A stretch of 64,000 nt of DNA from Thermoanaerobaculia bacterium (GCA_036005845.1 DASYQD010000018.1:13333-77332); one strand, 5' to 3'. Positions 23,917 through 51,191 are shown, numbered from the stretch's first letter. The notes: a model not told the origin generated them from the sequence alone. Numbers and translations: made by a program.

Positions 23917-24141
23917 TCACTTAGCGTCGGGAAGGATGTCCGCCGCGCGGAGCGCTAGCCGGCGCAGCCATGCGCTCAACTTCAAGCCGTCACGCGCGGC
24001 AGCAGCCTCAAGAGCGCGCTTCTGCTCGGCCTGGATGCGCATGCGCACGACGTCATCCTTGAGCGCCTTGCCGGCCGGCGGGCCGGCCCTCCTCTTCGCC
24101 TGGGTCACGGCGTTAGATTGTGGGCGGATGTAGCTACACAT
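23917..24141 (-). CDS. ribbon-helix-helix protein, MobC/CopG-like (relaxosome accessory or antitoxin-type)
   Basis: ...RRAGPPAGKALKDDVVRMRIQAEQKRALEAAAARDGLKLSAWLRRLAL. Start is uncertain: track ORF starts at 24234, and the ATG at 24141 gives 74 aa. A TGTAGCTACA palindrome abuts that ATG. Confidence 0.5.
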   Translation of the reverse strand: MCSYIRPQSNAVTQAKRRAGPPAGKALKDDVVRMRIQAEQKRALEAAAARDGLKLSAWLRRLALRAADILPDAK

Positions 24142-24604
24142 CAAGTCAGCGTCCGCCAATGGTAGTCGGGCACCTTGAGGTACTTCCGGAGCGCTCGACG
24201 CATGACCTCGCTCTCGCTGAGCAGAGTTGGCCATCCAGCGCGATCCCGGCCTGTTCGCCTATTACTATCCGCCAAGCGGGGCGGTCTTCGTCAGGTGCGT
24301 CCACTGCGCCAAGTGCGGCGAGGAGTCCGCCTTTGGGTTCACCACAGGCGCAGATGACCGTGAGCGATTGGCGCGGATCGCCCTGCCGCAGAGCGCCCTA
24401 AGCCAGGCTGTCACTTCAAATGACCAGCGCCGCCTTGTGGCGCGGCGCGAAGCCTCAGCGGCCGCTGCCGCTACCACCGCCCGCATGGCTTGCCCTGCGC
24501 CGCCTTCCTCGCCGTGGGCATCTTGTGGCGCCCTGGAGACGAGTGGCACGCAGCGGCGTGCATCTGCTATGTCGCGTCGGCTGGTGCCGCGCCAGAAACG
24601 GGCG

Positions 24605-24844
24605 CTATTGCTTAGTCGTCGCCGTCAGCTTCTTTGAAGGGAAGAAGTGCCAGAAGACCGGATAAAGAGTCCCGGTCAAGAAAGACTCCACTAGGGCGAT
24701 TGGCCATGAACGGCAAAAAAAGATGAGCGCCACGGCGAGGCCCAAGTACACAAATCCTGCCAAAAGAACGAGCCACACCTTGGCACCGATGTCGGCAATA
24801 ATCTTGTAGGCCTTAGCCTGCTCTTCGGTGATGCGCTCGGGCAT
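24605..24844 (-). CDS. small 2-TM membrane protein (island gene, unknown function)
   Basis: 79-86 aa depending on start (TTG 24865 or ATG 24844). Two hydrophobic helices. Low GC. Last gene of a three-gene minus-strand operon. Confidence 0.4.
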   Translation of the reverse strand: MPERITEEQAKAYKIIADIGAKVWLVLLAGFVYLGLAVALIFFCRSWPIALVESFLTGTLYPVFWHFFPSKKLTATTKQ

Positions 24845-24857
24845 GGCTGTCGGCAGC

Positions 24858-25220
24858 CTAGGCAACGACGCTGTAGACTTCGATTACCTGCAACTTGCGC
24901 GGATCGAATTGGCACTCCTCGCCTTCAGCCTCGCACACATGACAAACAACGGTTGCGGGCACGCGCTCGCCCGCCGGCACGTACTCAGCAATGTTCTTGT
25001 CGCGAGGGCAGAGATAGCCGTGCCGCTTGGCGAATAGGCCCTCTCTCACGGCGAGTTCGCATAACATATGAGCTACACGGTAAGGGACACGAAAGAAGCT
25101 GCGGATATTCTCGACGTAGATGTTTTGTGGATCGGTGTTGCGCATTAGCTCGGCACGGCGTGCGAACGCATCCCCAATCCAGCTCCTATCCATTGCGCCG
25201 ACGAATCTCTCGAACCACAT
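24858..25220 (-). CDS. Cys-rich hypothetical protein (possible zinc ribbon, CHVCEAEGEEC)
   Basis: 120 aa. Overlaps the upstream gene by 35 nt. No recognisable family. Confidence 0.4.
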   Translation of the reverse strand: MWFERFVGAMDRSWIGDAFARRAELMRNTDPQNIYVENIRSFFRVPYRVAHMLCELAVREGLFAKRHGYLCPRDKNIAEYVPAGERVPATVVCHVCEAEGEECQFDPRKLQVIEVYSVVA

Positions 25221-26043
25221 AGGCCGCCCCTTGGTCTAAATGGGAAAACGTCCTGAAGCTAACGATGCCCTTGGTCGGGTCTACTGTGAAGTGATCCAGG
25301 CCGATGCTGTCCCCCATCCACTTGAAAGTGGTGGCAAGCAGCGGCTTGTCGCGCAGATCGTCGTATAGAGATGGATCGTCTCTCTTCACCAAGTAGTTTC
25401 CGTCCATCACCTGACGCGTCGTCGCGCGCGCCTTCTTAAACTGCACAGCCGGGGCGTCGATCAAACCTTCGTCCCAAAGCGCCTTCACTCCCTCGTTCAA
25501 GTCCTCGGGATGTACATCGGAAAGGCCGAGAGAATCGAACACAAGGATCTCCACCATCGCTTCGTCTAGATCCTTGATGCTTCGTATGACTCGACCCGGC
25601 TCGTACTGAGCTGCAAGATTCTTCTCCATAATCGTAAAGCGCAGTTCTAAACTGTTCCGACCGCACGTGACGTGCACGGGCCAGAGATAATCGACGGCCT
25701 TCTTCTCTAGTGGATCGGCAAGGTAGACAACGTAGGGAAGGTCCAGCAGATAGAACCAGCTACGGCTCGTCCTAGCGGGGTCGCTTGCCAGCAACCGACC
25801 ATCGTCAAGCAACCCCTCAGGCAGATCGCGTACTGTGACGTCCGAACACCTGTGGAGGTGCACATGGTGCTTTGTCGTGAGATGGTGCGTGATGATAAAC
25901 GCGTCGACCTCGCCCCCGTCGCGGGAGCCCAGGATTGCTTCGATGACCTGTGCCTTGGTGCCGGTCGGTAGATCGAAGTACTGCCGCAGCTGTTCAAGGG
26001 GATACAGATCTAGTAAGCGAACGGCAAGTGGATTCTGAGCCAC
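25186..26043 (-). CDS. hypothetical protein (285 aa, no recognisable domain), first gene of island operon
   Basis: The track ORF extends to 26448 through high-GC sequence. A GTG at 26043 is preceded by a strong Shine-Dalgarno (GGAGGGGGC-GTG). Low GC. Confidence 0.5.
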   Translation of the reverse strand: MAQNPLAVRLLDLYPLEQLRQYFDLPTGTKAQVIEAILGSRDGGEVDAFIITHHLTTKHHVHLHRCSDVTVRDLPEGLLDDGRLLASDPARTSRSWFYLLDLPYVVYLADPLEKKAVDYLWPVHVTCGRNSLELRFTIMEKNLAAQYEPGRVIRSIKDLDEAMVEILVFDSLGLSDVHPEDLNEGVKALWDEGLIDAPAVQFKKARATTRQVMDGNYLVKRDDPSLYDDLRDKPLLATTFKWMGDSIGLDHFTVDPTKGIVSFRTFSHLDQGAAYVVREIRRRNG

Positions 26044-26233
26044 GCCCCCTCCAGACCTGTTGAACCAGTGGACTACGGCAGACCATACCGCAGATCGTGA
26101 CGAGAGGAGCCAGGGCGTCACGGGCGGCCGTGGATGCGCCGGCCGCCAGTCTAGCGCACTCCTCGGCCAGACCCTGGTCTGCGACCGACCTCCGGACAGG
26201 CGGCACATCCCGCAAGCCACGAATCGCCCCGGG

Positions 26234-26262
26234 TTGACTTGTCGAAATGTCGCCAATAAAAT
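26234..26262 (+). promoter_or_regulatory. sigma70-like promoter (TTGACT-17nt-TAAAAT) driving a near-leaderless transcript for the 26269 ORF
   Basis: Consensus-like -35 and -10 boxes with 17-nt spacer. ATG at 26269 is 7 nt after the -10. Direct TGTCG repeats and a TGTCGC/GCGACA inverted repeat overlap the -10 and start codon. Confidence 0.5.
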
Positions 26263-26268
26263 AGGCCC

Positions 26269-26910
26269 ATGAGCGACAACGACCACCACCCCGACGGGAT
26301 AGCGAAGCGCGACAGCCTCACTCCGCTCAACGCCTGCGTCCACGCCGCGCTGGAGCACGGCGTGGGGCTGGCTCAGGCGTTCTTTGAAGGGCGCCAGCTT
26401 GACCCGTGGCTGTTCGCTCACATTGTGCGCTACGGGGTGCTGGAGCACCTACCGGACGCCATCGTCAACGTGGACGATTACGGCGTCACACGCAACGCCA
26501 TGTGCGGCGTGGAGATTCACGCTGACGGTTGCTCCATTCGGATCTGGAAGAAGCCCAGGGCCGAGGATGAGTATCTCCAGCCTCCAGGAGAGTCGGAGGT
26601 CCGCCAATCCTTCTACTGGCAGCAGATCCCTCTGCCTTTCGCAGTCGAGCAGCAGCTACCTCAGCCGGACAACTTGGCGTATGTCTGGGAAGCCTTGCCC
26701 TCCGGGACAATGAATCTGTTCCTCGTCAAGCCGAGCGGCATCGAAGGAATCTGGAAGCCGGGTCTATTCGAGTGGGCCGTTCCGGTGCCGCATCCGGCGG
26801 AGCTGGTCACCGTCGGTACCGACTTCCTCGAGGGCGACGAGGACGAAGATCTGGATATCGACCTGCCAAACGCGGGTTCTGGTGGCGGCGAGCCCAACGG
26901 CGGAGCCTAA
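26269..26910 (+). CDS. hypothetical protein with acidic C-terminal tail (213 aa)
   Basis: ORF begins immediately after the promoter. No recognisable family. Co-directional and adjacent to the XRE/ImmA-like gene. Confidence 0.5.
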   Translation: MSDNDHHPDGIAKRDSLTPLNACVHAALEHGVGLAQAFFEGRQLDPWLFAHIVRYGVLEHLPDAIVNVDDYGVTRNAMCGVEIHADGCSIRIWKKPRAEDEYLQPPGESEVRQSFYWQQIPLPFAVEQQLPQPDNLAYVWEALPSGTMNLFLVKPSGIEGIWKPGLFEWAVPVPHPAELVTVGTDFLEGDEDEDLDIDLPNAGSGGGEPNGGA

Positions 26911-26917
26911 GGCAGTC

Positions 26918-28024
26918 ATGGCGGCAGTCAACGGAGAACGCGTCAAGCAGGCGCGCGAGATACGAGCGCTTACGCAGGGTGAGCTTGCAGAGCGCATCGG
27001 AGTCTCGCAGCCAACCATTTCGCTCATCGAACAAGGAGCGCAGCAGCCATCCGAAGGGGTGCTGCAAGCGCTGGTGCTGGCGACGGGCTTTCCTGTGGGC
27101 TTCTTTCAGAAAGGGAAGGGGCCGGACTTTCCGTCGGGGTCTATGCTCTATCGCAAGTCGAAGAAACTACCGAGCACGCCAGCCAGTCAGTTGCGGCAGT
27201 CGGCGCGGCTTGCTCTGGAGCTGGTCCAAGCCCTCGGCACTCGATTCAAGCCGATCCCCGTGCGGATACCGCTGGTAGGCAGCGGTGATCCGATAGAGGC
27301 CGCGCATGTCGGCCGGTCGGTCCTGGGAGCATCGCCAGACGGGCCGATGACCGGAGTCATTCGGCGCCTGGAGCGCGCCGGGGTGCTTGTCGTATTCCTC
27401 CCCTCGGCGCCCGACGGATTCGACGGCTTCTCCGCTTGGTCCGACGAGGGCGACGGACACGAGAGGCGCCCAATCATTTGCCTTAAGCACGGCGTGCCGG
27501 GCGACCGTCTTAGGCTCACGGCGGCGGAGGAGCTGGGCCACCTGATGATGCATCAGGACTTCCTAGGCGGTTTGAAGGAGCTGGAGCAGGAAGCCGATGA
27601 GTTTGCAGGAGAGTTTCTATTTCCGCAGAGCGAGATGAAGGAGCAACTCAGGCTGCCGATAACACTCGCGCACTTGGGCGAGCTCAAAGCGCGTTGGGGC
27701 GTCTCCATCGCTGCCATCGCACACCTTGCCGAGCAGCGGGGATTGATCAGCGACCGCCAAAAGCGGTACGTGCGGGCAAAGCTGCATGATCGCGGGTGGC
27801 TGCATACGGAGCCGATCCATATCCCGGTAGAGGCCCCCAAGCTTTGGCGCCAGATGGCGGAGGGCATCTTCGGAGCGCCGGTTGACCATAAGCGCTTGGC
27901 GCGCGAGTTTGAGGTCTCCTCTGGCTTCGTTCAACAGTTGATCGAGGTCAACCGGCCGCTAGACGCGAGACCCATTGCTCCTAGCTCTCAGGTTCTTCTG
28001 CGCTTCGACCGCCGTCGCGCCTGA
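26918..28024 (+). CDS. XRE-family HTH fused to ImmA/IrrE-like (COG2856, M78-type) metallopeptidase domain
   Basis: N-terminal HTH (QAREIRALTQGELAERIGVSQPTISLIEQG) and central AAEELGHLMMH. The latter is an ImmA-like motif with the first His replaced by Glu. 368 aa from ATG 26918. Confidence 0.75.
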   Translation: MAAVNGERVKQAREIRALTQGELAERIGVSQPTISLIEQGAQQPSEGVLQALVLATGFPVGFFQKGKGPDFPSGSMLYRKSKKLPSTPASQLRQSARLALELVQALGTRFKPIPVRIPLVGSGDPIEAAHVGRSVLGASPDGPMTGVIRRLERAGVLVVFLPSAPDGFDGFSAWSDEGDGHERRPIICLKHGVPGDRLRLTAAEELGHLMMHQDFLGGLKELEQEADEFAGEFLFPQSEMKEQLRLPITLAHLGELKARWGVSIAAIAHLAEQRGLISDRQKRYVRAKLHDRGWLHTEPIHIPVEAPKLWRQMAEGIFGAPVDHKRLAREFEVSSGFVQQLIEVNRPLDARPIAPSSQVLLRFDRRRA

Positions 28025-28087
28025 ATCGCAGGCTTGACACGTAGCTCGTTGGTAACCACACCGTGGATACTAATTGGAGACGTGGCG

Positions 28088-28519
28088 ATGGACCCAAGAG
28101 AACGGCGCAGACTGGTGATAACGGTAACGGTCCGAATCACTCGGAAGGGTAACGCATGGACTGTTCCTTCTCAGTGAGCGTCCCGAACGTTGGACCACCT
28201 CGGGGAAGTGGCGGTCACCCACCGTTGGCACTCTCGGATGGTGACTGGTAACGATGTCAAGTTTCGCGGGCCGCGGTGGAGAAGCTGCGAGCAGAGCGGG
28301 TGGCGAGATGCGCGTGTGGGGGAGCACCGTGCTAATCAAAACGCTGGCCGAGTACGACCGGTCGACGAGTACCGGCTCGCCGGCTACCCGCTCGTGCTGA
28401 GCACTGGCAAGAAGCTGTTCTCCGACAGGTTCGCGTCACCAGACTTCACCCTGACCGAGTCGCGCGCCGTGCGATCCGGAGGCCTGGTCAACACCTACCG
28501 TGGCGCCGGCTCAGGCTGA
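28088..28519 (+). pseudogene. frameshifted/degraded RibD C-terminal domain (dihydrofolate reductase-family) gene
   Basis: C-terminal frame gives VDEYRLAGYPLVLSTGKKLF...LTESRAVRSGGLVNTY (RibD_C hallmark). Upstream part is in another frame (..VLIKTLAEYD..). A short ORF from ATG ~28088 stops after 29 codons. A TTGACA lies at ~28035. Confidence 0.45.
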
Positions 28520-28672
28520 TCAACCACACCGACAGCTCGTCTCGGCGTTCTGCTTGCCGGCGGTGGTCGCCGCGCTGGCGGGTGACGGGCTGATTGAGCT
28601 GAGCGCGGCGGCGCGGATACGGGACCGCCTGGCGGGGCAGCACGTGATTCACGTGCTAATCTGGGAGCCGCC

Positions 28673-28906
28673 ATGAAGACGAACGTCACGCTCAAGCTCG
28701 ATGCGGATCTCCTCCGCGAGGCGCGCGTGGTGGCAGCCGAAGAGGGGCGATCGATGAGCGCTCTTCTCACCGATCAACTCGAAGGCATCGTGCGCGAGCG
28801 GAAGGCCTTCGTTAAGGCGCGGCGGCGGGCACTTGCCCGTCTCCGAGAGGGTCTCGACCTCCAGTGGACACCGCCCGCATCGCGGGACGAGCTCCATGAG
28901 CGATAG
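28673..28906 (+). CDS. vapB: VapB-type RHH/AbrB-like antitoxin
   Basis: 77 aa (MKTNVTLKLDADLLREARVVAAEEGRSMSALL). Overlaps vapC by 11 nt. Confidence 0.7.
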   Translation: MKTNVTLKLDADLLREARVVAAEEGRSMSALLTDQLEGIVRERKAFVKARRRALARLREGLDLQWTPPASRDELHER

Positions 28907-29348
28907 ACACTTCGTCGACACCAACATCCTGATGTACGCCCACGACGCTGCCACGGGCGAGAAGCATCAAATGGCCCGGGCGCTGGTGGAGCAGTTGTGG
29001 GAGACGAGGTCGGGTGTCGTCAGCACCCAGGTCCTTCAGGAGCTGGCGGTCAACTTGCGGAGGAAGGCCAAGAAGCCACTCGATGCAAGGACGACTCGTG
29101 ACGTCGTGTCCGACTACCTTGCGTGGCACGTTGTCGTGAATGGCGGGGAGTCGGTTCTCGAAGCGCTCGATCTCGAAGCGCGGCATCGCATCTCTTTCTG
29201 GGATGCCCTCCTGATACAGGCCGCGAACGCTTCTGGCGCTGAGATCCTCTACTCCGAGGATCTGTCGGACGGCCAACGTTACGGATCGGTACGAGTCATC
29301 AATCCGTTTCGAGTGAAGGCCCGCGCCGCTCCGCCATCGCCCGGCTAG
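28896..29348 (+). CDS. vapC: PIN-domain toxin VapC
   Basis: MSDRHFVDTNILMYA...FWDALLIQAA, 150 aa from ATG 28896 (the track ORF starts 21 codons earlier). Confidence 0.85.
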   Translation: MSDRHFVDTNILMYAHDAATGEKHQMARALVEQLWETRSGVVSTQVLQELAVNLRRKAKKPLDARTTRDVVSDYLAWHVVVNGGESVLEALDLEARHRISFWDALLIQAANASGAEILYSEDLSDGQRYGSVRVINPFRVKARAAPPSPG

Positions 29349-46713: not shown

Positions 46714-47508
46714 CTATTGTGTCTCGGAGGCCGGCTGGTCAACACAAGCATACGGCTGGCACCGATCCCACAGATCCTCGAAATAGGTCTCGAAGAGCGC
46801 GTAGATAGAGGGTTGACCCTGACTCATCTTTCTGCACTCGATCACAGGTGCGTGCTCCTCGTTTTGCTTGCGCACGATGTAAGGTACGATAAAAAGTACT
46901 TCGTCCAAGAAGAAAAGCCGCCAGAGATACGGCTCCCGATGGCAGCGAACCTCGATGGCAATTCCTTCCATCACCAATGCCTGAATGTTAGTCAAAGTGT
47001 AGGCGACAGCCGCCATCCAACTCTCGTAGCTACTGCCGAGGTCCTTCGCCCGCTGCCGAGTGAATTGATCAGAGTTCTTTCCGGCGCACAGCACCCGAAT
47101 CGTTTCATCTGATCGTTTCTTCAGGCGAGCCGCATCGAATAGTAGCGCCTTATCGTGCCCTCCCAAGATGTTCCGCCCAAGTTGGATGAGGATTCGCGAG
47201 GTCTTTGCTCTCGAAAAGTTGTCTCGAATTGCGTTCTCGGCATGCCGAAAGTTCGGATAGAACCGCACAAAGCCGAAAGCACCTCCAGCTCGCCGCGCCC
47301 AGTAGGCAGACAGGCGATCGAGGAGTGCATCGCGGAGCTGTCGCCGCAGCGCGACTACGACGATCATGGCCAAAGTTATGCCGGTTGCGGCGGTTAGCCA
47401 AGGATCTCCAAGAGGCCTGCCAAACGCCTTCATTAGCGCGTAGACTACCGCCGCGAGCAAGGCGACTACCGCCGCAGAAAGGAGATCACTCAGAAGTTCT
47501 TTCTTCAT
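46714..47508 (-). CDS. 2-TM membrane protein with ~200-aa cytoplasmic domain of unknown family
   Basis: ATG at 47508 (MKKELLSDLLSAAVVALLAAVVYALM...) is preceded by AAGGG. 264 aa. Last gene of the minus-strand island operon. Confidence 0.5.
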   Translation of the reverse strand: MKKELLSDLLSAAVVALLAAVVYALMKAFGRPLGDPWLTAATGITLAMIVVVALRRQLRDALLDRLSAYWARRAGGAFGFVRFYPNFRHAENAIRDNFSRAKTSRILIQLGRNILGGHDKALLFDAARLKKRSDETIRVLCAGKNSDQFTRQRAKDLGSSYESWMAAVAYTLTNIQALVMEGIAIEVRCHREPYLWRLFFLDEVLFIVPYIVRKQNEEHAPVIECRKMSQGQPSIYALFETYFEDLWDRCQPYACVDQPASETQ

Positions 47509-48973
47509 TGCTGGCCCTTTGTTTGCGGAGCCAAAGAATCGCCGGTCGCGCATCGTACTGGCCCGTTCCAATCAGCTCTAAGTAATGCGACAGTGGCACA
47601 TGCTCCAGGCTTGGCCCTAGATGCGCGATAAAGTCATTAAGCGTGAGGCCATTTTCGTCGAGCATCTGCTGCAATAGCTGCCGCCCGGTCGCCACATCGG
47701 CAGTCTCAGACGCGGACGGTCGCGCTGGCTCTCGGACCTTGTAGTCTTCGTGGGACGCCTCGCCGAACTCTGCGACCGCGTGCATGCCGAGCGTCCGCGT
47801 CTGAATTTCTGCCAATCCGACATCACCGCCCCTCGCGGTCGAGGCAACCCAGTGCAACGACTGGTAACCATTACTCTTCGGGCGAGCGATGTAGTCCGAA
47901 AATCCCCGTGGACTGTTCCAGCGGGTCAAAAGCGCGCTTAGAACGTCAACAAACTTGTAACAGGTGCTTGGATTCCTGTCATCGATAACCGCTCGGTAGC
48001 CAATGCTGTCCCAGAGACCAGATACCGGGACTTCGTACCGTAGTGATTTCTGGTAGGCGCTGAAGACCGACTTCGTCCTACGCTGCAAGACGACACGAGT
48101 CGGTGACAACTCTGCAGCCGCGAGCTCAAGTGCCTGTTCCACCTCGCAGAGAAAGCGACTTCCGGGCAGGGCCTCGTCAAGGTCTTGGCGCGTCTCGGCA
48201 AATATCTGTGGATCGACTTCCGCAAATGCCAAATCGCGCAAGTCTCTCGCTCTGTCCCCGAAGCGGTGCTCCCCGACCAGAAGGGGCAGGACTCGGAGAG
48301 CGAAGCTCGCCAACTCAGCCCGCAAGGCTGTCGGCACTTCGAGAGCTGATACTTCCGAGACGGAGGCTACCACTGTGCTGAAGAAGAGAAGAATATAGAC
48401 GGCCTCCCTCTCTGCTTGGCTTGGATCGAGCGAGCTACGAAGCTGCTGCCGAAGAAAGCCCGCAGCATCGATGGCGGCGCGGGATACGGGCAGGTGTGGC
48501 GGCGGCGATTCGGCGGAAACCGATCGCGCCGCGCGCAATGCCCGGCGAAGGCTTTCCTGGAATGGTCCGTAAAAGAACGCCGCTATCCGGAGTCCAGCGC
48601 GCGCGCGCGCGGATAGCTCTCGAGTCGTCGATCCTCTCGCTTTGTGTGCGAGCTCGTGTCCGGCCAGACATAAAATTTCAAGAAGCTCCAAATCCAGCGC
48701 GAAGAAGCCGGGCTGAAAGCTGCTGGTGTCCGCGCCGAAGTCCATAAAAAGACGCCAGACCGCCCTAGACGAATAGAGAGGGAGTTTCAGGCCAGCCAAT
48801 TCCCTCAGCTGGATAGGGACCTGTCGAATTTCCTCGAGAAAGCCACCCTGGGGATAAAGCTCCCGGCAGAGCTCAGACTGCTCGAGCTCTTCCAAGTGCG
48901 CCAGTTCGCGGGCGAGCCAGGGATGATCGTTCCGCGCCACAGACAACCAATTGCGGTCTAAGGAGACAATCAT
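47486..48973 (-). CDS. fusion protein: N-terminal HEXXH metallopeptidase-like domain + C-terminal RelA/SpoT (RSH) nucleotidyl/pyrophosphotransferase domain
   Basis: ILCLAGHELAHKARG (HEXXH) at residues ~105-115. C-terminal DSIGYRAV.., GYQSLHWV, EIQTRTLGMHAVAEFGEASHEDYK match RSH synthetase motifs. 495 aa. Confidence 0.7.
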   Translation of the reverse strand: MIVSLDRNWLSVARNDHPWLARELAHLEELEQSELCRELYPQGGFLEEIRQVPIQLRELAGLKLPLYSSRAVWRLFMDFGADTSSFQPGFFALDLELLEILCLAGHELAHKARGSTTRELSARARAGLRIAAFFYGPFQESLRRALRAARSVSAESPPPHLPVSRAAIDAAGFLRQQLRSSLDPSQAEREAVYILLFFSTVVASVSEVSALEVPTALRAELASFALRVLPLLVGEHRFGDRARDLRDLAFAEVDPQIFAETRQDLDEALPGSRFLCEVEQALELAAAELSPTRVVLQRRTKSVFSAYQKSLRYEVPVSGLWDSIGYRAVIDDRNPSTCYKFVDVLSALLTRWNSPRGFSDYIARPKSNGYQSLHWVASTARGGDVGLAEIQTRTLGMHAVAEFGEASHEDYKVREPARPSASETADVATGRQLLQQMLDENGLTLNDFIAHLGPSLEHVPLSHYLELIGTGQYDARPAILWLRKQRASNEERTSE

Positions 48974-49117
48974 GCCGTCTCTATCTTGGGTCCAATCAGG
49001 TTATTGCTTGTTTGTTGTTTGCTCGAAGTCGGCTCTCGGTCAGGATGCTACAAACCTCTACGCGTGAGATGCGCGCCGATAGTCCTCAGCAAAGAACGCG
49101 GCCGGACTCAGCGCCGC

Positions 49118-49483
49118 TCAGGACATACTAGACAGTTGAGCCATGAGCGAAACGACCAATCCAGCGACCTCCTCGGCCTCGTGCCCACGCCCGCTAAAAA
49201 GATGGAACCGCTTAAAGTATTCTAGCACGTCGGATTTCTGCAGGCGCCGAGCAGAAAGAGCGTATGGAAGGTAGTTGACTGATACGCCTCTCAAAAGGCG
49301 CGTATAGCTCCTGGTGGTCAGCCGACGAGCGGCATACTGAACGAGAAAGGCCTCATGCTCGCTGAGAGCATGCTCGAGGTCGGCGATCGTTGCTACGTTA
49401 AACAAGAGAAAGTGGTCGGTGTGGCCTGCGGCAACACCAGATAGTACAAGCCTATCCAGGAGGACTGAAGCAGCCTCGGCCAT
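49118..49483 (-). CDS. hypothetical protein (121 aa)
   Basis: ORF lies between the two RSH genes and overlaps the upstream gene by 90 nt. Coding status uncertain. Confidence 0.3.
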   Translation of the reverse strand: MAEAASVLLDRLVLSGVAAGHTDHFLLFNVATIADLEHALSEHEAFLVQYAARRLTTRSYTRLLRGVSVNYLPYALSARRLQKSDVLEYFKRFHLFSGRGHEAEEVAGLVVSLMAQLSSMS

Positions 49484-50226
49484 CGCACGTCTATTCTAGC
49501 GACCAGCGGACTCGCCCGGATGAAGCGGTCGAGAGAGTCCGCATCAATTGTGACCTCGCCAGGACTGACCTGAATGTCACTATCCAAGGCGGCCCGATAG
49601 CCGTGCAATGTATCGCGAAGACGCGAAAACTCTTGATCAGCAAGCTCAAGAAGACCGGCAATCCTTGAGAACGCTCGCTGTGCCTGTCGCGGCACAGCAT
49701 TCCTGGTCTTGTATCCGAGATCATGGTGGATCTCGGCCCAGGAGTGTTGGAGAATGGATCTGATTTGTATCTCTGCCTTAAGGTCTCGAAACCGCCTATA
49801 CTCTGGAAGATCTATCCTGGATTCTCCCAGCGACACAACGTAGTGCACGGAGAGATACCCAAACCGGTCTGGATCCAAGATCGCTCTCTTGTCGACCGAA
49901 TTGTCAGTGTCCACTTCGAACTCTTCCTGTACAAGCTCTGCGATTCTGTCCACGTCGTCCGCAAAGTAGGTGATCAGGCGAATTCCGGCCAGGTCAGTGA
50001 TCTCGTCGAGCGATTGATACGCGGACGGATGTCTTTGTAGTTTTAGCGAGAGCGACTCGGCTGTCTTCGGACGTCCGGTTATTGAGTGAATTGCTGAAGC
50101 AGTGGGCTCTATGAGCCTTTGAAGGAGACTTGTCATCTCCGTAGCGAAGCGGGCGTAGATTTGGAACCTGTGCTGATACTCGCCAAGGATCGCCTCAGGG
50201 CGGCGGGGCGCCAACGACAGATTCAT
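49393..50226 (-). CDS. RelA/SpoT-domain small alarmone synthetase-like protein
   Basis: ITDLAGIRLITYF, GYLSVHYVV, LKAEIQIRSILQHSWAEIHHDLGYK are canonical (p)ppGpp-synthetase-fold motifs. 277 aa, no HD hydrolase domain. Confidence 0.8.
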   Translation of the reverse strand: MNLSLAPRRPEAILGEYQHRFQIYARFATEMTSLLQRLIEPTASAIHSITGRPKTAESLSLKLQRHPSAYQSLDEITDLAGIRLITYFADDVDRIAELVQEEFEVDTDNSVDKRAILDPDRFGYLSVHYVVSLGESRIDLPEYRRFRDLKAEIQIRSILQHSWAEIHHDLGYKTRNAVPRQAQRAFSRIAGLLELADQEFSRLRDTLHGYRAALDSDIQVSPGEVTIDADSLDRFIRASPLVARIDVRWPRLLQSSWIGLYYLVLPQATPTTFSCLT

Positions 50227-50277: not shown

Positions 50278-50317
50278 GGCCGCCGGCGGGGCTGCGCGGC
50301 CGCCGGCAGGGCTGCGC
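50278..50317. repeat. 20-bp tandem direct repeat x2 (GGCCGCCGGC[G/A]GGGCTGCGC) upstream of the RSH gene
   Basis: Two adjacent units differing at one position, 50-90 nt upstream of the start at 50226. Confidence 0.55.
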
Positions 50318-50889
50318 TAGCATTGCCAGTGAGAGCAAAATGATGATTGGGGCTGCCTGACATGTGCTTAGAGCACCACCAACGGAGGCGACAAGACCGG
50401 CGCACCCGGCCAGCGTCCCCCTTCTGCTTCCGAGAGAGTGACGATGTTGCCCATCCTACGGCGGCCAAATGCGCGTCGCTGAGACGAGAGAGGCTCGCCC
50501 GCTCTCCCATATGGCCTCGTGGCTGGCTTCTGCCATTCCTACTTAGACGGACGCGGGGACGCGATTTCCCCGCCGACGAAGGCCTCACCTTCGACGTGAC
50601 TGTAGTAGTTAGGAGTCTGCGCGAGGTTCTTTGTCACCTGCGTGCGCTGCCCCGCGTTGACCGAGGGCCTGAGGATCCCGAGGCGCGATGCATGGATCGG
50701 ACGATTTGCACAGCCTCTCGGGAGACCTCCCGTTTCCACTAGACGACGGAGCCTGCGGGCCTTGGCAGGATTCCGTGGCCGGAGGTCGCCTTTCCGGCGA
50801 TCTTTGGTCGCCTCGGCTCGCTCGCGGAGAGCGCGCTGAGAGCCTGGTGTTTATTGCTATCCGCGGACGGGCCTGCCGGATCAGGATCC

Positions 50890-51191
50890 GCCGGGCGGAC
50901 TTGCTGCATGGGATGTGATTTCTGGTGCGGCCCGCCTCGGCGCGCGGGTGTTCGGCGTCAGCACAGGACACTCCCTATCAGCGGGGGGGCGTCGAGCGCC
51001 TGCACCTGCCTTACGAGCTGCTCAGCGATGCGCGGCTCGAGCTCGCCGGTGCGCTTCGGTTGCCGACCTTATCGGTGGCGGGGCACACCGTGATCAGGCG
51101 GCTGACTCTGATCGGACGGCACGGTCGGATCGAGACCTGCTTGTACCCGGTCTTTCTGCCGGACGCGGATGCCCACAGCGTCCTAGGGTAG
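50890..51191 (+). pseudogene. 5'-truncated, frameshifted peroxiredoxin (Bcp/AhpC-TSA family) remnant
   Basis: C-terminal frame: ERLHLPYELLSDARLELAGALRL...RRLTLIGRHGRIETCLY. An upstream adjacent frame reads ARVFGVSTGHS. The catalytic Cys region is absent. Confidence 0.45.

Follow-up and report, generated by a model that had tools for sequence, protein, structure and literature searches.

What does a short island of low-GC DNA do with two synthetase domains of the RelA/SpoT homologue (RSH) type and a small membrane protein? The question is raised by positions 46714 to 50226 of a 64,000-nucleotide stretch (the window) of a Thermoanaerobaculia (Acidobacteriota) metagenome-assembled genome (GCA_036005845.1 DASYQD010000018.1:13333-77332). 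An earlier sequence-only reading of this DNA had described an operon of four open reading frames (ORFs) on the minus strand, of 277, 121, 495 and 264 aa, with a peptidase-like domain fused to one of the synthetases, and had proposed a toxic or signalling defence system. The four ORFs are indeed found there. We count three genes in two units instead of four genes, because the 121-aa ORF is the frameshifted end of the 277-aa gene. Unit A is this broken synthetase gene; unit B consists of the 495-aa synthetase (gene 1) and of the 264-aa membrane protein (gene 2). The explanation which we prefer, and to which we give about an even chance, is that the island holds two independent, horizontally acquired RSH units: a dead single-gene synthetase, and a mobile, alarmone-based conflict or defence module that couples an RSH enzyme to a membrane protein.

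A cut-down long RSH and its membrane partner

The Pfam family RelA_SpoT is matched in gene 1 at residues 299-414 (E 5.5e-18, 65.7 bits against a cut-off of 27) and in 15 of 15 members of the family of 495-aa proteins. The catalytic motifs RxKxxxSxxxK, DxxxxR, G-loop Tyr, ExQxR and HxxYK are present in both synthetases of the window, which bears out the two intact domains of the earlier reading, and they are invariant across the 495-aa family. Invariant residues of this family include R299, K301, S305, K309, D322, R327, K366, N368, Y370, H374, E389, Q391, R393, H408, Y411 and K412, and the G-loop PKxNGY(370)QSxH is unchanged throughout the family alignment, in which no residue before position 197 is invariant. 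The best sequence matches of gene 1 are long Rel, RelA and SpoT proteins, collinear with it from about residue 219 on, and a profile comparison with long RSHs gives a probability of 99.9% over residues 188-433, that is over the helical bundle and the synthetase.

The AlphaFold model of gene 1 (pLDDT 80, pTM 0.72) is superposed by Foldseek on the HD and synthetase fragment of Rel with a TM score of 0.72 over 385 columns. The N-terminus is called a pseudo-hydrolase of HD fold on structural grounds only, because the profiles show no similarity to the HD domain (probability 0.1%). Neither TGS, ZFD, ACT nor any other C-terminal Pfam family of long RSHs is found in gene 1 or in any member of its family. 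The protein ends instead with a tail of four helices, which hhalign relates to the helical region following TGS in long RSHs (probability 71%, E 3.7e-5) while Pfam PF19296 is unmatched; the tail may be related to their alpha-helical domain. As judged from its sequence, gene 1 is a descendant of a long Rel/SpoT-type enzyme which has lost TGS, ZFD, ACT and the hydrolase active site and has kept a complete synthetase site.

The sequence-only reading had seen a peptidase-like domain in the N-terminus of gene 1 on account of a GHELAH (HEXXH) motif. The motif is there, but the domain is not: we found no peptidase fold and no match to a peptidase family, and the motif is not conserved. Its first His is partly conserved (GLxxH), whereas none of 14 homologues shares its Glu or its second His; they read RHVFQ, HHYFQ, IYAYN and the like at this place. 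The motif is thus a coincidence of a single sequence, and the peptidase reading is rejected. We also considered GHELAH as a relic of the HDxxED motif of RSHs, and dropped the idea in view of the HD profile probability just given.

Two observations concern the databases. The 495-aa protein had no self-match in two protein searches, though the contig of the Joint Genome Institute (JGI) calls exactly this gene. One relative, MCW5213028.1, is named a bifunctional synthetase/hydrolase at NCBI; the name looks wrong, as present evidence from its sequence does not support the label.

Gene 2 has no Pfam match, only three database matches, itself included, and no match in plasmid and phage collections. 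The two N-terminal transmembrane (TM) helices announced by the earlier reading are confirmed: the model has helices at residues 2-28 and 36-78, and both ends of this hairpin are probably cytoplasmic by the positive-inside rule (MKK... and RRQLR). The rest of the protein is predicted to be a membrane-anchored domain of the phospholipase D (PLD) fold, catalytically degenerate. An alignment of nine members keeps H-x-E-x-[YF]-L-W-R-L, P-Y and a QLG...GG loop; the HKD motif HxK(x)4D(x)6GSxN is missing from it, the equivalent strands reading LWRLxFxD...PY. By strand order, the position of the catalytic His is occupied by Leu or Trp (L195/W196 region) and that of the Lys by the invariant Arg197; this placement is our own reading of the order of strands in the model.

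Two homologues of gene 2 are longer. At L096 (1839-3269) the protein has 476 aa, and its additional C-terminal domain contains an almost canonical NUDIX box, GGKTDGSETFKEALYREIKEEID; this fusion suggests that the partner lineage may deal with nucleoside-diphosphate compounds. At L089 (5304-6592) there is a basic C-terminal extension of about 50 aa, which may be a fused antitoxin-like tail, and the last 4 nt of the gene are also the first of a PIN-domain gene.

The association of the two genes, which the earlier reading had guessed when it made the 2-TM protein a partner of the larger RSH, is conserved (Table 1). In 10 of 12 loci the synthetase gene is directly followed by a homologue of gene 2, with 25-45% identity; the two genes overlap by 4 nt in six loci and by 23 nt in the window. 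The pair is a conserved, probably translationally coupled unit, and gene 2 has the look of an obligate partner of gene 1. We found no third conserved ORF and no conserved upstream sequence at the loci of the pair, and no homologue of unit A adjoins it at those related loci whose DNA was read. Hence, of the four genes that were supposed to travel together, only the 495-aa and 264-aa genes co-occur.

Table 1. The twelve loci of the gene 1 family, their gene 2 and their neighbours
Locus	Gene 2	Arrangement	Neighbours
Window	yes	23-nt overlap	broken unit A; housekeeping flanks
L001	yes	4-nt overlap	Rel gene (housekeeping), 55 nt upstream
L086	yes	4-nt overlap	genes without known function
L087	yes	4-nt overlap	protein kinase
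L089	yes	4-nt overlap	type II restriction-modification, ORF6N, PIN
L090	yes	4-nt overlap	integrase, IS91 and DDE transposases
L091	yes	adjacent	SIR2_2 and DUF87/HerA
L092	yes	4-nt overlap, truncated at contig end	PIN pair
L095	yes	149-nt gap	short contig
L096	yes	101-nt gap, with fused NUDIX-box domain	short contig
L088	no		343 nt of contig upstream; 2209-aa peptidase_C1 protein downstream
P0174 contig (Logan ERR4592245)	no		Pycsar cyclase and PycTM

The family is rare. An exhaustive search of 1.84 billion representatives gave 14 proteins at E<1e-30, 13 of them of 452-509 aa; conservation among these 14 proteins extends over residues ~170-490. For ten members we looked up the 90% cluster, and each of these clusters contains one or two sequences. 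In 185,579 GTDB species genomes, scanned with patterns of gene 2 and with a synthetase pattern specific to the family, there was no true member, two hits having the synthetase motif only. A metagenome scan gave at least 80 loci; among the matches listed, all are ordinary long RSHs with 30-38% identity. The contigs which carry the pair range from 32 to 60% GC. Unit B is horizontally mobile, and genes of defence or toxin-antitoxin systems are frequent beside it.

Three particular loci should be mentioned. The P0174 protein, of 676 aa, contains the C-terminal helical module in repeated copies and lacks a membrane partner; downstream of its gene come a Guanylate_cyc gene and a PycTM gene, jointly a Pycsar system. 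At L001 (1-2713) the pair follows, on the same strand, a housekeeping long RSH whose TGS/ZFD/ACT end is visible, and this is the sole such locus. At L087 (2616-3464) and at L001 (7242-8330) a gene for a Ser/Thr protein kinase is found no more than a few kb from the pair, possibly by coincidence.

Unit A and the low-GC island

The 277-aa protein matches RelA_SpoT at residues 51-176 (E 1.8e-21, 77 bits against a cut-off of 27) and carries the motifs RPKxxxSxxxK, DxxGxR, GY(124)xSxH, ExQxR and HxxxYK. It has 1775 homologues at E<=0.001, typically 353-405 aa long, which cover only the first ~85% of it. The 121-aa ORF matches no Pfam family. When a homologue of 370 aa (P0039) is compared with the DNA by tblastn, its residues 5-248 align in one frame and its residues 258-361 in another, namely in the stretch of the 121-aa ORF. 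This ORF, until then taken for a possible separate gene, is the C-terminal third of the 277-aa gene, cut off by a frameshift of 1 nt. The junction reads ...GAC GTG CG|ATG GCC... and contains no slippery run; one added base restores a protein of 369 aa, which aligns end-to-end with P0039 (48% identity, E 3e-121).

The frameshift is probably real, because the identical 277-aa product is found on the NCBI contig record and was also read on the JGI and Logan contigs; these three assemblies may share reads. Unit A is most likely a single gene inactivated by the frameshift, a recent pseudogene, and the functional second free RSH of the earlier reading is lost with it. Repaired, it would be a single-gene synthetase of ~369 aa with a C-terminal accessory domain.

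Among solved structures, those nearest to the core of unit A are RelQ and RelP (E 1e-17 to 1e-11), and a grouping with such small alarmone synthetases (SAS) was one of the outcomes which the sequence-only reading had itself counted against its proposal; the chains of CapRel, FaRel2 and Tas1 give no sequence match to it even at E 10. The PADLOC profile PDC-S33 (349 positions) is matched over the synthetase core, positions ~41-176, with 35-68 bits, but not over its full length; a relative of unit A (P0095) matches positions 44-300, again with a low score (63 bits). A 3.5-kb ColE1 plasmid, a Bacteroides phage-plasmid and a Bacillus megaplasmid each carry a relative of unit A as a lone gene. No gene for a nucleoid-associated protein (NAP) adjoins unit A in the window or its relatives on those three plasmids. 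The two synthetase domains of the window have only a remote relationship to each other in sequence comparison and are no duplicates.

The island which contains both units (Table 2) has a GC content of 0.567, against 0.68-0.70 in the flanks on both sides, and the GC content at third codon positions (GC3) is 0.59-0.65 in its genes against 0.89-0.92 in the adjoining host genes for an ABC transporter and MsrA. The island is clearly foreign DNA, horizontally acquired, as had been proposed. Two of its gene products are tagged VGS57_02065 and VGS57_02075 at NCBI. No mark of integration was found, either as a tRNA in the window or as repeats flanking the island, and an Rfam scan of the island gave zero matches.

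Table 2. Position of the features of the island in the window
Feature	Position	Strand	Basis
Low-GC island with unit A (broken synthetase gene) and unit B (synthetase and membrane partner)	46714..50226	-	GC, GC3
Unit A, 5' part, small alarmone synthetase gene (277-aa ORF)	49393..50226	-	residues 1-247 in frame; last 30 codons out of frame
Unit A, site of the 1-nt frameshift	49481..49484	-	tblastn frame switch
Unit A, 3' part, displaced C-terminal domain (former 121-aa ORF)	49118..49483	-	aligns to P0039 residues 258-361
Unit B, gene 1, 495-aa enzyme (pseudo-HD, synthetase, helical tail)	47486..48973	-	long-RSH-derived
Gene 1, N-terminal helical domain, ~residues 1-190, HD-hydrolase fold without conserved catalytic residues	48404..48973	-	predicted structure
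Gene 1, GHELAH (HEXXH, residues 106-110), chance motif	48644..48658	-	unconserved in family
Gene 1, synthetase (SYN) domain, residues 291-415, catalytic motifs intact	47729..48103	-	Pfam, conservation
Gene 1, C-terminal four-helix tail, residues 423-494	47492..47707	-	conserved in family; helices in model
Unit B, gene 2, 264-aa membrane protein, start overlaps gene 1 end by 23 nt	46714..47508	-	conserved neighbour
Gene 2, two N-terminal TM helices, residues ~5-60	47329..47496	-	hydrophobic segments kept in all homologues
Gene 2, cytoplasmic PLD-fold domain, residues ~80-250, without HKD catalytic histidine	46759..47271	-	predicted structure

The surroundings call for a few remarks. The flanking pseudogene of the earlier reading exists as a weak redoxin/peroxiredoxin-like remnant at the edge of the island (~50790-51191, plus strand); its match to Pfam Redoxin (E 0.02) is confined to the C-terminal half, an in-frame stop lies upstream, and it may mark the insertion site. 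A tandem duplication of 20 nt (GGCCGCCGGCGGGGCTGCGC x2, 95% identical) is found at 50278-50317, in a non-coding stretch of 700 nt upstream of unit A. Another low-GC island, the first of the window, extends over 24000-29000 (GC 0.57-0.64) and includes at 26882-28024, on the plus strand, a gene for a 380-aa protein with HTH_3 and Peptidase_M78 (ImmA/IrrE-type) domains; the two large ORFs which adjoin this gene have no Pfam match.

What the pair may do

The most plausible class of function for unit B is a toxin-antitoxin or nucleotide-signalling defence role, related loci adjoining restriction-modification, SIR2-HerA, Pycsar and PIN genes. The core intuition of the sequence-only reading, an unusual RSH with a 2-TM partner, survives in this form. 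In the mechanism that we propose, a trigger such as phage infection or envelope damage would lead gene 1 to make a 3'-pyrophosphorylated nucleotide, most likely (p)ppGpp because its G-loop, PKxNGYQSxH, is of the kind usual in (p)ppGpp synthetases and is identical to that of long RSHs, and gene 1 itself would not be able to degrade this product. The PLD-like domain of gene 2, in which an invariant Arg stands in for the phosphate-binding Lys, would bind either the nucleotide or the gene 1 enzyme and would tie nucleotide production to the membrane. Gene 2 could then be, like the TM effectors of Pycsar and CBASS, a receptor and effector which arrests or kills the cell, or a gatekeeper which controls the synthetase; within the conflict-module reading, we hold the roles of receptor/effector and of regulator/antitoxin to be roughly evenly matched. 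An output of (p)ppGpp is compatible with defence, since a partner-activated toxic SAS (toxSAS) aborts infection by making pppGpp (bioRxiv 10.64898/2026.04.06.716658).

Several points weigh against the conflict-module reading. The HD fold of the N-terminus of gene 1 is a structure predicted from 14 sequences, and the model of gene 2, built from 3 sequences, is only moderate (pLDDT 69). The NUDIX domain of the L096 homologue scores just under the Pfam cut-off (E 6e-4, 20.2 bits for 21.1). Gene 2 does not adjoin the synthetase gene in two family members (L088 and P0174), and a mirror-tree comparison of the two genes gives a weak correlation (r 0.26, Mantel p 0.16). At L001 the pair stands among ordinary metabolic genes, behind a housekeeping long RSH, and the flanks of the window are housekeeping too. 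The picture of the neighbours comes from 12 loci only. Finally, no PADLOC model of a known system backs a defence role, the only match being the partial one of PDC-S33 to the synthetase core.

Unit B could also be a classical toxin-antitoxin pair of the toxSAS type, in which the membrane protein is the antitoxin and either sequesters the synthetase at the membrane or removes its product. Bicistronic genes overlapping by 4 nt are the signature by which toxSAS toxin-antitoxin systems were sought (PMC7229694), and six loci have such an overlap; the pair is also mobile and patchily distributed, PIN toxin genes adjoin it at L089 and L092, and the NUDIX-box fusion of L096 could degrade the product as antitoxins of the small alarmone hydrolase (SAH) type do. 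However, the antitoxins known from toxSAS systems are small and soluble or are SAH hydrolases, not 2-TM proteins of PLD fold, and the PLD domain of gene 2 lacks the catalytic His. Moreover, gene 1 is nearest to housekeeping long RSHs, outside the validated toxSAS subfamilies, and a synthetase without gene 2, as in two loci, is not expected of a lethal toxin. We regard this explanation as unlikely.

A particular version of the defence role would make unit B an abortive-infection system, with a hydrolase-dead synthetase derived from Rel, with (p)ppGpp, or another 3'-pyrophosphorylated nucleotide like it, as its dedicated messenger, and with a 2-TM partner whose degenerate PLD-fold domain is the receptor and which damages the membrane once the messenger is bound. 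It is doubtful, and we rate it as rather unlikely in so specific a form. If it were true, no messenger/effector defence system built on an RSH and no alarmone receptor of PLD fold would have preceded it.

Outside the conflict class, the main rival is an accessory device of the stringent response, in which gene 2 would be a membrane-anchored sensor that responds to envelope or lipid stress by activating a (p)ppGpp synthetase independent of the ribosome. The core and the G-loop of gene 1 resemble those of long RSHs; its regulation would be independent of the ribosome because TGS, ZFD and ACT are lost; lipids are frequent targets of PLD-fold proteins; and the context of L001, where the pair comes directly after a housekeeping Rel gene on the same strand, favours it. 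Rarity and mobility disfavour it: every cluster looked up has only one or two sequences, the family is absent from the GTDB species genomes scanned, the GC content of the hosts varies widely while the GC3 of the island is foreign in the window, and defence or mobile-element neighbours are found at half of the loci. On these grounds an envelope-stress alarmone synthetase seems to us improbable.

It is very improbable that the whole island is decaying foreign DNA without current function: unit A is frameshifted, a degraded redoxin gene lies at the flank and no sigma-70-like promoter was found by a scan that does not cover Acidobacteriota promoter types, but both ORFs of unit B are full length and keep every family-invariant residue. 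As for the four-gene operon, with a zincin (HEXXH) sensor or antitoxin domain fused to an RSH and with a second free RSH and a 2-TM effector, all its ORFs are co-directional inside one low-GC island and the HEXXH is literally present, but this motif is unconserved in 14 homologues, the free RSH is frameshifted and missing from every related locus read at the DNA level, and the two synthetase domains are only remotely related, so that the idea is hardly credible any more.

Relation to known systems

Three roles of RSH enzymes are known: housekeeping factors of the stringent response, toxins in toxin-antitoxin systems, and phage sensors made of a single protein. With the long RSHs (Rel, RelA, SpoT), gene 1 shares the order of HD fold, helical bundle and synthetase as well as the identical G-loop PKxNGYQSxH, and as in RelA the hydrolase domain is catalytically dead. 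Unlike them, it has no TGS, ZFD or ACT/RRM and ends at residue 495 with a short helical tail only, its HD-like part has diverged beyond recognition by sequence, and, where long RSHs are universal, it is rare, mobile and tied to a membrane protein. With the toxSAS modules (FaRel, FaRel2, PhRel, PhRel2, CapRel; PMC7229694), unit B has in common a compact arrangement of two overlapping genes on mobile DNA and an intact synthetase site. However, gene 1 is not a single-domain SAS: it keeps a domain of HD fold, groups with the long RSHs and falls outside the validated toxic subfamilies FaRel, FaRel2, PhRel, PhRel2 and CapRel, and its partner, a 2-TM protein of PLD fold, is unlike any described antitoxin.

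Unit A resembles the fused toxin-antitoxins of CapRel type and Pag1B/GRel of PANGU type I in its layout: within ~365 aa, a synthetase with G-loop Tyr124 at the N-terminus is joined by a helical linker to a C-terminal domain of ~120 aa. It differs in that it has no sequence match to CapRel, in that it lacks an adjoining NAP gene, such as PANGU type I has beside the GRel toxSAS, and in that the window copy is frameshifted.

CBASS, Pycsar and the accessory effectors of type III CRISPR resemble unit B in that an enzyme of nucleotidyltransferase fold goes with a TM protein whose C-terminal domain looks like a ligand-binding one. The signal generator of unit B would be an RSH pyrophosphokinase and not a cyclase, and its receptor would have a PLD fold instead of a SAVED, CARF, STING or cNMP-binding domain. 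Among PLD proteins, both the non-catalytic ones (the sugar-binding TrmB, DUF1669 of FAM83) and the nucleases (Nuc, NucT, SauUSI, BfiI) differ from gene 2, in which the HKD His is replaced and which has invariant motifs of its own and a membrane anchor.

In the literature searched, we came across neither an RSH with a TM PLD-like protein as its partner nor a pseudo-HD and synthetase protein without TGS. The pair of unit B would add a fourth design to those of RSH enzymes, a Rel stripped of ribosome sensing and of the hydrolase and coupled to a dead PLD membrane protein. If gene 2 binds the alarmone, it would be a new class of receptor for nucleotides of the (p)ppGpp type and a new link between alarmones and the membrane; if it regulates the enzyme, the pair would show a stringent factor rewired to a non-ribosomal input.

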